From the sequence record PQ863253.1: a stretch of 64,000 bases of DNA; one strand, written 5' to 3'. Positions 2,534 through 7,030 of the stretch are shown here, in pieces; the first letter of the stretch is position 1, and each line of letters begins with the position of its first letter. Under the pieces are notes generated by a model that was given only the letters and a program-made list of their open reading frames with translations, did not search any database and was not told where the DNA came from. Position numbers and translations under genes: made by a program. Source of the stretch: Escherichia phage Ptacy1496.

Positions 2534-2812
2534 TCAAAATGTAATTTCTAACCAATCACCATCACGCTGATCACTATTGACTTTAAAGCTGAATCCTTCT
2601 TTTCTCAGCCAATCACCAATTTCTTCAGTAATCAATTTATCACGAGCAATACAATAATAACTAAAATGTGTTTTACCTTGTTCAGCTGCTTTATTAGCAA
2701 GTTCCGAAAAATCTTTAATAAAACACTCTAGCTTAAACTGTTTACTTTTAAGTGCTTTTTCGCGCAATTGATTAGCAAAAGATTCATTTTCATAAAGATC
2801 ATACTGTTCCAT
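2534..2812 (-). CDS. Hypothetical protein (24.2 position)
   Basis: 92 aa ORF, tight packing with neighbours. Confidence 0.6.
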   Translation of the reverse strand: MEQYDLYENESFANQLREKALKSKQFKLECFIKDFSELANKAAEQGKTHFSYYCIARDKLITEEIGDWLRKEGFSFKVNSDQRDGDWLEITF

Positions 2813-3014
2813 TTTTCACCTTTTTATTGATATGTCTTTTTCTATAGACGACTTTTTCTCGAGTTTCAAATTTATTTTTAGCAGTCATAGCTCGAGCCCA
2901 TAATACAGCCACTTCTTTTGCCTGTAAGTTTAATTCACGAGCAATTTCAATGAATGACTTTCCAGACTCATGAAGAGTAAACACCACAACCTCAGTTCTC
3001 ATAATCAATCTCAT
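2799..3014 (-). CDS. Hypothetical small basic protein, possible HTH (24.3 position)
   Basis: 71 aa ORF overlapping the upstream ORF end by a few codons. Confidence 0.55.
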   Translation of the reverse strand: MRLIMRTEVVVFTLHESGKSFIEIARELNLQAKEVAVLWARAMTAKNKFETREKVVYRKRHINKKVKNGTV

Positions 3015-3082
3015 GTTATCGAGTTGGTGCCATTATATACATCATTTTCTGATTGTGTTTTGTGTGCTTTCAAAATGAAGAA

Positions 3083-3096
3083 AGGGGCCGAAGCCC
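3083..3096 (-). terminator. GGGGC-UUCG-GCCCC hairpin downstream of hoc, followed by U-rich tract on minus strand
   Basis: Inverted repeat with UUCG loop immediately 3' of hoc stop. Confidence 0.5.
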
Positions 3097-3103
3097 CTTA
3101 TGA

Positions 3104-4522
3104 TTATGGATAGGTATAGATGATACCAGTTTCTAAAGCAGTTTTATGAATGATGTATCCATTACGCGATTCTTGAACATCAACTTCTGGATAGTCTTTC
3201 ATCATCTTCTGAAGAGTGTAACGATGTAGGTAATATTTACTATCTGGGTCGTCAGTTTTCCAATCTTTACCTTCTTCGGTCATTTTTTGGATTTCATCCA
3301 TAACCCACCAACCGCACCAGATATAAGCTGAAGTACGATGTGGAAGAGGATGAACATAAGGTAGTTCACCTTCTGGTTCTGGAGCAACTTTATCAGTTAC
3401 CTGAACTTGACCTTCTGCTGTAATAGTTTTGCTATCGTAATCAGTTGCAGTAACGACAGCAGTAACTTCAATAGTTTGACTTCCAACAGATGAGGTATCG
3501 ACAGTATATACGTTAGTTGACCCTTCTACAGGAGAAGAATCTTTCTTCCATGAGTAAGTAATTTGTGCTTCTTCTGGAGCACCCGTAACATTAGCCGTAA
3601 ATGTAGCCGGAGCATCTTGCTGAACATTAATAGAAGGAGGAGTCAATGTAACCTGTGGATTCATTGTCTTCTTATTAACTGTCAATGATACTTCATTAGA
3701 AGTAACTTCCTTTTCATTGTAATTTTCAGCAGTTACTTGGGCTACGCATTTAATTCTTTTTACTCCACTTGTAGTTGGAGTATAGCTAAATGTAGAGTTA
3801 GTTTCTCCACCAACTTGTGAATCATCTACATACCACTGATACGTAGCAGACGCTCCATCAGGTTGAGAAGCTAAGGCAGCAGTAAATTGAACTGGGGTTC
3901 CGATTACTCCCGCTGGAGGACTATCAGGAGTTACTGCCAAAGTAGTTGTCTGCGTCTTTTTATTAACAGTCAGTGACACTTCATTGGAAGTAACTTCCTT
4001 TGTATCATAATCTGTCGCGGTTACTTGAGCTACGCACTTAATTGTTTTAACTCCGCTTGCGTCAGGAGTGTAATTGAATGTAGTGCTAGTTGCTTCGCCC
4101 ACAGGAGAACCGTCAACGTACCATTGATACGTAGCGTTTGCACCTGATGGCTGTGAAGCTAAGGCAGCGGTAAATTCAATTGGAGTTCCAATCACTCCAG
4201 CATCAGGGCTACCAGGAGTTACTGCCAAAGTAGTTGTTTGTGTCTTATTTTGAACTGTGATAGTTGTACTAATTTCAGCTGTTTCAGGTTCAGATTCTGC
4301 AACTTGATTGGTTGCAACTACTTTAATAGTCTTTTGACCGGCAGGTCCTTTTAGTACATAACTAAAAGTTGCTGACGTTTCTTCCTGTGGAGCGTCGTCT
4401 ACAGTCCAAGCATATGTAATAGTTCCGCCTCCAGTTTCACCACTGGGTGTAGCAGTAAACTGCTTAGTTTCATCAATAACCCCTGTCGGTGTTTTAGGAG
4501 TTATATCAACTGTAAAAGTCAT
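3104..4522 (-). CDS. hoc: Highly immunogenic outer capsid protein Hoc, 472 aa variant with an additional Ig-like domain
   Basis: N- and C-terminal regions recognised as T4 Hoc (remembered as about 376 aa); internal tandem duplication of an Ig-like module. Confidence 0.9.
   Translation of the reverse strand: MTFTVDITPKTPTGVIDETKQFTATPSGETGGGTITYAWTVDDAPQEETSATFSYVLKGPAGQKTIKVVATNQVAESEPETAEISTTITVQNKTQTTTLAVTPGSPDAGVIGTPIEFTAALASQPSGANATYQWYVDGSPVGEATSTTFNYTPDASGVKTIKCVAQVTATDYDTKEVTSNEVSLTVNKKTQTTTLAVTPDSPPAGVIGTPVQFTAALASQPDGASATYQWYVDDSQVGGETNSTFSYTPTTSGVKRIKCVAQVTAENYNEKEVTSNEVSLTVNKKTMNPQVTLTPPSINVQQDAPATFTANVTGAPEEAQITYSWKKDSSPVEGSTNVYTVDTSSVGSQTIEVTAVVTATDYDSKTITAEGQVQVTDKVAPEPEGELPYVHPLPHRTSAYIWCGWWVMDEIQKMTEEGKDWKTDDPDSKYYLHRYTLQKMMKDYPEVDVQESRNGYIIHKTALETGIIYTYP
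3665..4250. repeat. Diverged tandem duplication (two units of about 290 bp) inside hoc encoding repeated Ig-like domains
   Basis: Two adjacent units align over their whole length, e.g. shared ...ccattgatacgtagc...gctaaggcagc(a/g)gtaaatt...ccaggagttactgccaaagtagttgt... Confidence 0.8.
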
Positions 4523-4531
4523 AAGTTATCC

Positions 4532-5212
4532 TTATTTTAATGTTACGAAAGAAGAGTTGCGTGTTTCACGAATTAGAACTGATCCGTCACGGTTAATGTA
4601 ATAAATTAAGCTAAATAAAGTTTGGTGTGCTGACGCATGTTCAAAACTAGTTGGGTGAGATTTCCAATCAGGAGTTTCAGCAATCCATTGATAAATCCAC
4701 CAAGGAACAGTACAGAATCCTGGATTTTTTCCAATCAACTGAAGATTCGGGCTAAAGTTTTCCGGAAGAGTAAATACAGACGGCTTTTCAGATTCAATAA
4801 TCTCAGCTACAGCCTGTTCAAATTTTTCTTCAACAAATGGAGTATCTTCAATCAAAACATCGGTATTTTCAGGAATTTTATCTGTTTCTACTACTTCAAT
4901 TTTAATGTCAGATTTAACCGGAGAATCAATCAAAAGTGCTGCTTCTGGATTGACTTCTTCATCGTCATATTTTAACCCCTCTGCAGCATCAGCAGCATCA
5001 ATTAAGTCTTTAATAGATAACCCATCAGTCTCCGGCATAGGTTCACTAGCGAGCTTCTGGAGAGCTTCTTCAATATCATTAACGATATTATCAAAAGATT
5101 TATTCTTTTTGACCTTTATACCAAACTGTTCAGCATATTCAGCTAATTTAGCTTTAGCTTCTTTATTATCATCAAGAGCCTTCAGCTCTGCAATATAATC
5201 TTTATCTATCAT
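4532..5212 (-). CDS. inh: Inhibitor of prohead protease Inh
   Basis: 226 aa; sequence and position match T4 inh. Confidence 0.85.
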   Translation of the reverse strand: MIDKDYIAELKALDDNKEAKAKLAEYAEQFGIKVKKNKSFDNIVNDIEEALQKLASEPMPETDGLSIKDLIDAADAAEGLKYDDEEVNPEAALLIDSPVKSDIKIEVVETDKIPENTDVLIEDTPFVEEKFEQAVAEIIESEKPSVFTLPENFSPNLQLIGKNPGFCTVPWWIYQWIAETPDWKSHPTSFEHASAHQTLFSLIYYINRDGSVLIRETRNSSFVTLK

Positions 5213-5225
5213 AATATTTCCTCAG

Positions 5226-5233
5226 TATAAATA
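5226..5233 (+). promoter_or_regulatory. Late promoter TATAAATA upstream of uvsW
   Basis: Exact TATAAATA 30 nt upstream of uvsW ATG. Confidence 0.6.
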
Positions 5234-5262
5234 TAGATATATTTATTACATGGTATTTAGAC

Positions 5263-6774
5263 ATGACTGACATTAAAGTACATTTTTATGATTTTAGTCA
5301 CGTGAGAATTGATTGCGAAGAAAGTACATTTCATGAACTCCGTGATTTCTTTAGCTTTGAAGCTGATGGGTATCGTTTTAATCCGAAGTACAAATATGGC
5401 CACTGGGATGGACGAATTCGTCTTTTAGATTATAATCGCCTTCTTCCATTCGGTTTAGTCGGGCAAATTAAAAAGTTCTGCGATAACTTTGGCTATAAAG
5501 CCTGGATTGACCCACAGATTAACGAAAAAGAAGAATTATCAAGAAAAGATTTTGATGAATGGCTTTCTAAATTAGAAATCTATTCAGGAAATAAAAGAAT
5601 TGAACCGCATTGGTATCAAAAAGATGCAGTGTTCGAAGGATTAGTTAATCGTCGTAGAATTCTTAATCTTCCAACATCCGCTGGTAAATCGTTAATTCAA
5701 GCTTTGCTTGCGCGATATTATTTGGAAAATTATGAAGGTAAAATTCTTATCATTGTTCCAACAACTGCTCTAACAACTCAGATGGCTGATGACTTCGTTG
5801 ACTATCGTTTATTCAGTCATGCAATGATAAAGAAAATTGGTGGCGGAGCATCAAAAGATGATAAATATAAAAATGATGCACCAGTCGTTGTTGGTACATG
5901 GCAAACTGTAGTAAAACAACCGAAAGAATGGTTCTCACAGTTTGGAATGATGATGAATGATGAATGCCATCTTGCTACAGGAAAAAGTATTTCATCTATC
6001 ATATCAGGTTTAAATAACTGCATGTTCAAATTTGGTCTATCTGGTTCATTACGTGATGGCAAAGCCAATATCATGCAGTATGTTGGAATGTTTGGTGAAA
6101 TATTTAAGCCAGTAACGACTTCTAAGTTAATGGAAGATGGACAAGTAACTGAGCTAAAAATTAATAGTATTTTTCTTCGCTATCCCGATGAGTTCACTAC
6201 TAAATTAAAGGGAAAAACTTATCAAGAAGAAATAAAAATTATTACGGGGCTTAGTAAAAGAAATAAATGGATCGCTAAATTGGCTATTAAGCTTGCACAA
6301 AAAGATGAAAACGCTTTTGTCATGTTTAAACATGTATCACATGGTAAAGCTATTTTCGATTTAATTAAAAATGAATACGATAAAGTTTATTACGTATCAG
6401 GGGAAGTTGATACCGAAACCCGCAATATAATGAAAACCTTAGCTGAAAATGGTAAAGGAATAATTATAGTAGCTAGTTATGGTGTATTTTCTACTGGTAT
6501 TTCAGTTAAAAATCTGCATCACGTTGTTTTAGCGCACGGTGTTAAATCAAAAATCATTGTATTACAAACAATCGGTCGTGTATTACGTAAGCATGGTTCT
6601 AAAACAATCGCAACAGTCTGGGACCTCATAGATGACTGTGGTGTCAAGCCAAAATCTGCTAATACTAAAAAGAAATATGTTCACTTGAACTATCTTTTAA
6701 AACACGGCATTGATCGTATTCAGCGCTACGCAGATGAAAAATTTAATTACGTAATGAAAACAGTTAATTTATAA
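5263..6774 (+). CDS. uvsW: UvsW RNA-DNA and DNA helicase (SF2 ATPase)
   Basis: 503 aa; Walker A-like PTSAGKS and DEAD-like DECH motifs; recognised as T4 UvsW. Confidence 0.93.
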   Translation: MTDIKVHFYDFSHVRIDCEESTFHELRDFFSFEADGYRFNPKYKYGHWDGRIRLLDYNRLLPFGLVGQIKKFCDNFGYKAWIDPQINEKEELSRKDFDEWLSKLEIYSGNKRIEPHWYQKDAVFEGLVNRRRILNLPTSAGKSLIQALLARYYLENYEGKILIIVPTTALTTQMADDFVDYRLFSHAMIKKIGGGASKDDKYKNDAPVVVGTWQTVVKQPKEWFSQFGMMMNDECHLATGKSISSIISGLNNCMFKFGLSGSLRDGKANIMQYVGMFGEIFKPVTTSKLMEDGQVTELKINSIFLRYPDEFTTKLKGKTYQEEIKIITGLSKRNKWIAKLAIKLAQKDENAFVMFKHVSHGKAIFDLIKNEYDKVYYVSGEVDTETRNIMKTLAENGKGIIIVASYGVFSTGISVKNLHHVVLAHGVKSKIIVLQTIGRVLRKHGSKTIATVWDLIDDCGVKPKSANTKKKYVHLNYLLKHGIDRIQRYADEKFNYVMKTVNL

Positions 6775-6799
6775 GGGCTTCGGCCCTTTGGAGAAAAAG

Positions 6800-7030
6800 A
6801 TGTTACTAGAATTTAAACAATTTCTTTATGAAGCTTCTATTGATGAATTTATGGGTAAAATTGCCTCTTGTCAAACATTAGAAGGTTTAGAAGAACTTGA
6901 AGCTTATTATAAGAAAAGAGTTAAAGAAACTGAATTAAAAGATACTGATGACATCTCAGTCAGAGATGCTTTGGCAGGAAAAAGAGCTGAATTAGAAGAT
7001 TCAGACGATGAAGTAGAAGAAAGCTTTTAA
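6800..7030 (+). CDS. uvsW.1: UvsW.1 small acidic protein
   Basis: 76 aa from first ATG (the ORF track start is an upstream TTG); preceded by GGGC-UUCG-GCCC hairpin and GGAG RBS. Confidence 0.75.
   Translation: MLLEFKQFLYEASIDEFMGKIASCQTLEGLEELEAYYKKRVKETELKDTDDISVRDALAGKRAELEDSDDEVEESF

Follow-up and report, generated by a model that had tools for sequence, protein, structure and literature searches.

Hoc, a non-essential decoration fibre of T4-like phages that occupies the middle of every capsid hexamer, is used as a scaffold for phage display and vaccines, is highly immunogenic and has been studied more than any other mediator of phage adherence to mucus, and the T4 protein with three Ig-like domains is usually taken as the standard form. 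T4 Hoc (NP_049793, genome NC_000866.4; PDB 5vf3 and 8t1x) has 376 aa and forms a fibre of ~180 Å (PMC10385173). In a study of 650 Hoc homologues, the family was described as a string of Ig-like domains (1 to 10) attached to a capsid-binding domain that is conserved (Fokine et al, 2023; PMC10385173). The Hoc-like protein of Klebsiella phage PMBT63 (468 aa), known here by its published description alone, was reported to have four Ig-like domains, which is one more than T4, with the insertion at Lys109–Glu209 relative to T4 (PMC13435897, 2026), and the Hoc of PhiPNJ-9 was reported without domain 3 (PMC11853027). The variable number of Ig-like domains in Hoc is thus already published.

The window analysed here is a stretch of 64,000 nucleotides from Escherichia phage Ptacy1496 (PQ863253.1). 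The ORF list contains a 472-aa reading frame on the minus strand at 3104–4522, with the stop codon at 3104–3106, which was identified as hoc by alignment to T4 Hoc. The phmmer search against the PDB returned T4 Hoc chains as the sole matches (5vf3_Z, E = 8.9e-222), and the best stretch paired residues 189–472 of the Ptacy1496 protein with residues 93–376 of T4 Hoc. The gene order rnlB (1520–2524), 24.2, 24.3, hoc, inh (4532–5212) and uvsW (5263–6774, 503 aa), as judged from the annotations of T4 and vB_EcoM_G4498, is the same as in T4. A terminator scan showed an intrinsic-terminator-like hairpin on the minus strand at 3082–3099, just past the hoc stop codon (AAGGGGC-TTCG-GCCCCTT followed by a T-rich tail), and the annotation of vB_EcoM_G4498 places a terminator at the equivalent position. 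Exact matches to the late promoter TATAAATA were searched on the hoc strand directly upstream of inh and hoc, and none was found there.

The neighbourhood of hoc showed some other features. The genes inh and uvsW adjoin each other in Ptacy1496 (gap at 5213–5262) and in vB_EcoM_G4498, whereas in T4 they are separated by segE, a homing endonuclease gene. The uvsW frame ends at 6774 and is followed by a separate ORF of 80 aa in another frame (6788–7030), whereas the T4 RefSeq record has a single uvsW CDS of 1764 nt; this arrangement may reflect either a genuine difference in frame or the history of the annotation. The 24.3 homologue at 2799–3014 encodes 71 aa and equals the RB32 gene in length (216 nt), whereas T4 24.3 has 171 nt.

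The hoc gene of Ptacy1496 is not private to this phage. The hoc genes of vB_EcoM_G4498 (Escherichia), PYps5T (Yersinia) and UAB_60 (Salmonella) are 99.9% identical to it in nucleotide sequence across the whole gene, so that their 472-aa products represent the same allele with essentially zero difference, and dozens of phages that were sequenced independently carry the same gene at 94–99.9% identity. The records of this 472-aa allele label it variously as “PKD domain protein,” “Hoc-like head decoration” or “putative Hoc protein.” The allele is therefore already sequenced and annotated, and it is an ordinary one for Ptacy1496.

The first-pass annotation had described two adjacent, related but diverged units of about 290 bp inside this gene, and the search for repeats bore this out with two units of 288 nt each. 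Tandem Repeats Finder reported a period of 288 with 2.0 copies, 78% matches and a score of 708 at 3666–4246, and a repeat search placed 288-nt copies with 77% identity at 3666–3953 and 3954–4241. In codon register, unit 1 spans 3956–4243 (residues 94–189) and unit 2 spans 3668–3955 (residues 190–285). When the CDS was compared with itself at all lags, the identity was 76.7% at lag 288, against a mean of 29.4% (sd 4.0) and a maximum of 41.7% at the other lags, and the internal repeat expected from the annotation was thus seen. The all-lag comparison of T4 hoc gave no comparable peak (maximum 43%). At the protein level, the two units are 79% identical, and the extra unit shows 42% identity to the first and last Ig-like domains. 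The exact runs common to both units, of 25 nt (unit nt 7–31) and 15 nt (unit nt 243–257), are located near the unit ends, and 14 of the 20 amino acid differences between the units fall outside the predicted strands (Fisher p = 0.025). The units are adjacent, in frame and of equal length with a similarity far above background, as in an intragenic tandem duplication.

The domain organization of the protein was examined with an AlphaFold2 model that was built on an alignment of 62 homologues. The model contains four confident beta-sandwich domains (residues 1–93, 94–189, 190–285 and 286–378) with pLDDT of about 85–95 by block, and the two repeat units are predicted domains 2 and 3 with coincident boundaries. 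On the minus strand, the Ig-like domain 1 at the distal tip (4244–4522; residues 1–93; pLDDT about 90) is followed by unit 1, an “A-type” middle Ig domain that is absent from T4, and then by unit 2, a “B-type” middle Ig domain that is the counterpart of T4 domain 2. The last Ig-like domain (3389–3667; residues 286–378) was assigned as the counterpart of T4 domain 3 by alignment and model, and the capsid-binding domain at the C-terminus (3107–3388; residues 379–472) by its near identity to T4. The model has low confidence in the C-terminal domain (residues 381–472), probably because of the shallow alignment. Foldseek against the PDB gave as top matches the four-Ig fragments of Dscam1 (Ig1–4), Sidekick (Ig1–4) and ICAM-5 (D1–D4), and Pfam matches to PKD, Ig_2 and Ig_3 were located in the repeated region and the domain following it. 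As each unit corresponds to one Ig-like beta-sandwich, the protein is predicted to have four Ig-like domains against three in T4. Thus, from alignment and modelling, Ptacy1496 Hoc is a five-domain allele with four Ig-like domains and a T4-type capsid-binding domain, and the earlier assignment of one Ig-like domain to each unit agrees with the predicted fold.

The comparison with T4 supported the same organization. The T4 protein aligns end to end with Ptacy1496 Hoc with a single gap of 96 aa (residues 94–189 in unit register) and 90% identity over the aligned residues, and the first, the B-type middle and the last Ig-like domains are common to both. The lengths given in the first-pass annotation (472 aa, and about 376 aa for T4) were therefore correct, and T4 Hoc is shorter by exactly one unit. 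Unit 2 is 90% identical to T4 domain 2 in nucleotide sequence, and the C-terminal domain, which is homologous to T4 Hoc residues ~281–376 and matches the chains whose structures were determined on the capsid (5vf3 and 8t1x), differs from T4 at one position in residues 379–472 (one nonsynonymous difference, dN 0.004). The dS against T4 was 0.21 for domain 1, 0.27 for unit 2, 0.22 for the last Ig-like domain and 0.14 for the C-terminal domain. Between unit 1 and unit 2, dN was 0.137 and dS was 1.03, giving dN/dS of 0.13. The high dS indicates an old split of the two units, and the low dN/dS indicates that both have been kept by purifying selection.

The relatives of each unit were then looked for in other phages. 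Among the 15 hoc genes compared, unit 1 was nearest to the single unit of teqdroes (90% nucleotide identity) and of IMG/VR locus L006 (88%), and unit 2 shared 94% identity with the only unit in IMG/VR locus L004 and 91% with that in phage JS09. The two copies in Ptacy1496 are therefore not each other's closest relatives, as the units of other phages are 88–94% identical to them and the neighbouring unit only 77%. DNA painting of the same set (14 other hoc genes plus Ptacy1496) showed that first units are of pure A lineage and later units of pure B lineage, whereas single-copy units are A, B or mosaic, the T4 unit being B except for an A-like 3′ end, that of RB32 B-A-B and that of L004 A-B. This painting resolves the order of the mosaics rather than the direction of change. 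Clean protein sites that are diagnostic of first and second units were limited to four (unit positions 47, 50, 51 and 54), the remainder being mosaic, and they give little power to distinguish a single from multiple origins.

The homologue lengths form a series of 376, 472 and 568 aa. In the phage collection, the 288-nt unit was found at 890 places in 616 records, and an evenly spread sample of 60 of these records contained one copy in 38, two copies in 21 and three copies in one (Shigella phage ESh36). From this sample and the totals, rather than a full count, the two-unit gene is expected in about 35–40% of the roughly 616 T-even-type hoc genes. The two-unit form was present in both Tequatrovirus and Mosigvirus, and the record of the Mosigvirus moskry itself annotates a repeat_region over the repeated units. 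The combinations of units differ between phages, with A + B in Ptacy1496, A + C in ime09 and pSs-1, A + B′ + C in ESh36, B-like + B-like in Pu-Krd-SF3 and A′ + B in moskry. The A-type unit comes first in 29 of 30 two-unit proteins and in all seven three-unit proteins, and the two types are about equally represented among the single-unit proteins. The three-unit Hoc proteins (568–570 aa) of ESh36 and of Escherichia phages UGKSEcP1 and UGKSEcP2 have the same unit family and architecture with the A-type unit first, and differ by an additional third unit of type “C,” a type that ime09 and pSs-1 carry in second place. The ESh36 gene (ON528746.1, 732–2438 of the extracted locus) is expected to encode five Ig-like domains. 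No Hoc protein longer than 570 aa was present among the best-scoring 120 homologues listed. The literature searched gave general statements on variable Ig number and the PMBT63 report, and no description of the series of one, two or three middle-domain units in E. coli T-even phages was found in it; the population-level cassette behaviour of the middle Ig domain is a small unreported detail.

Some of these records were informative in other respects. In the two-unit hoc of moskry (731–2149 of its locus), the second unit shares 98% identity with the only unit found in the Mosigvirus JS09, and the flanks of hoc are 88–97% identical between Tequatrovirus and Mosigvirus; together these similarities suggest that the hoc region may move between the two genera. 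Several records, among them those of Escherichia phage FriedrichMiescher, a T2 escape mutant and T6, show hoc broken up into two or three ORFs. In FriedrichMiescher (MZ501066.1, 301–1720 of its locus), the split results from one extra G in a G-run of unit 2 (GTGGGGG vs GT-GGAG). These split records could represent real Hoc-null phages or sequencing errors.

The origin of the extra domain was evaluated against these results. The first-pass annotation had attributed it to an internal tandem duplication, and a recent duplication in the Ptacy1496 lineage itself followed by rapid divergence of the copies would account for two clearly homologous units of 288 nt lying adjacent and in frame. The paralogy of the tandem units stands, but an origin in this genome does not: the units differ from each other in dS four to seven times as much as the flanking domains differ from T4, unit 1 is 88–90% and unit 2 is 90–94% identical to units of other phages at a mutual identity of 77%, and the A-then-B order is found in many phages of two genera. 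Such an event is therefore highly improbable, and a recent private duplication was ruled out by the dS together with the closer relatives in other phages. An error of assembly or sequencing that collapsed or expanded the repeat has a negligible chance of being correct. Although tandem repeats are prone to misassembly, the reading frame is intact, units with only 77% identity would not be confused by assemblers, and dozens of phages, each sequenced independently, have the gene at 94–99.9% identity; the unit divergence and the recurrence in many independent genomes ruled this possibility out. Horizontal capture of the domain from a gene other than hoc might be imagined, because the structural proteins of phages widely carry Ig-like and PKD domains, but it is hardly credible here. 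All 616 records matching the unit fall in T-even-type hoc genes wherever the annotation was shown, which ruled out another gene as the source, and the extra unit is far closer to its neighbour (79% protein identity) than to the first and last Ig-like domains (42%).

The possibility that the two-unit gene is ancestral in the E. coli T-even group, and that the 376-aa Hoc of T4 is a derived deletion, has more in its favour than any of these and was nevertheless judged rather unlikely. The near-fixed order of the units (A first in 29/30 and 7/7) fits one old origin, and single-copy A-to-B chimeras such as that of L004 are expected from deletion by unequal crossover. Against it, the B-to-A and B-A-B single-copy mosaics of T4 and RB32 are not produced by simple deletion, and T4-like phages at a greater distance, of the Klebsiella, Enterobacter and Cronobacter types, carry a single and different middle domain, which suggests that one copy is likely to be the deeper ancestral state. 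The sharing of the extra domain among phages, the dS of ~1.0, the closer single-copy relatives and the differing combinations all point to an old, recombining cassette. The five-domain Hoc allele is thus very probably an old and widely shared array of A and B middle domains, with unequal homologous recombination as the probable route of its gain and loss. Its gain and loss would most likely occur between the conserved ends of the units, mixed infection would provide the setting for unequal recombination between hoc alleles, and frequent exchange between such alleles would shuffle the combinations of units. As to the direction of change, this old recombining array accommodates either two ancestral units with loss in T4, or one ancestral unit with the array being built from two alleles.

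The number of Ig-like domains was also found to vary outside the E. coli T-even phages. The IMG/VR scan for hoc relatives gave 21 loci, which are too few for population counts, and relatives from IMG/VR and GenBank at about 50% identity ranged from 279 aa to >549 aa. The Hoc of Klebsiella phage Marfa (471 aa; 1501–2907 of its locus) is about 50% identical to Ptacy1496 Hoc and has four Ig-like domains and a capsid-binding domain, and IMG/VR locus L007 (1501–2910) encodes a protein of 472 aa that also has four Ig-like domains. Unlike in Ptacy1496, where the middle Ig domain is repeated, both of these have the last domain duplicated, with 79% identity between Ig3 and Ig4 in Marfa and 59% in L007, and both copies resemble the last Ig-like domain of Ptacy1496. 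This duplication of the last domain in the Klebsiella-type phages indicates that they gained a fourth Ig-like domain independently of the middle-domain array of E. coli phages. A further relative, of 282 aa (L013, 1501–2340), has no middle domain. The gains in Marfa and L007 and the loss in L013 indicate that the gain and loss of whole Ig-like domains in Hoc is recurrent and independent.

With a C-terminal domain nearly identical to that of T4, Ptacy1496 Hoc should bind to the capsid as T4 Hoc does, and by the same homology each gp23* hexamer of the mature capsid would be expected to carry one Hoc at its centre, and the protein would be dispensable for growth. The extra Ig-like domain would place the tip domain further from the capsid and extend the fibre by roughly the length of one Ig domain, adding ~4–4.5 nm to the ~18 nm of T4. 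The residues reported for MUC2 or fucose binding are present in Ptacy1496 Hoc, which speaks for their presence in sequence only; these residues were defined by co-immunoprecipitation of Hoc proteins with another domain layout and may not transfer to this protein. The tip domain contains E29-T-G-G-G33 (4424–4438), with E29 in place of the Q29 of T4; E29 and G33 were required for MUC2 binding by PhiPNJ-6 Hoc (PMC11150434). The motif NEVSLT occurs at the end of each unit and is therefore present twice, at residues 180–185 in unit 1 (3968–3985) and at residues 276–281 in unit 2 (3680–3697). In PhiPNJ-9 Hoc, where this motif is N180–T185, S183, L184 and T185 were required for MUC2 binding (PMC11853027). 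In the last Ig-like domain, D342 is the retained equivalent of T4 D246, and the D246N change in T4 Hoc alters glycan binding (PMC9271167). On the modelled architecture, an altered adhesion from the longer Hoc fibre is plausible.

A broader but tentative possibility, less probable than not on the present data, is that the middle Ig domain is a maintained, recombination-driven array of 1–3 ordered units (A, B and C), kept as a long-lived polymorphism in two genera with balancing or diversifying selection acting on the length of the fibre, its glycan-binding valency or its antigenicity, and with Klebsiella phages converging independently by duplicating another domain. Staphylococcal protein A is an exposed and immunogenic surface protein with domain-sized tandem repeats, the copy number of which varies by strain through recombination. 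By analogy, a maintained Hoc cassette array, if true, would be a viral counterpart of the repeat-number variation in bacterial surface proteins, although the Hoc units would differ in being strongly diverged (77%), ordered, limited to 1–3 and part of a viral capsid decoration. The importance of the finding is modest, and the cassette behaviour could merit a short comparative study. Among natural T-even relatives, a large minority have the four-Ig Hoc and a few have the five-Ig form, and the natural series of one, two and three units provides a ready-made set for the effects of fibre length and motif number on mucus adherence. Given these natural four- and five-Ig forms, what has been learned from the T4 protein about fibre reach, binding sites and antigenicity may not be directly applicable to therapeutic isolates.
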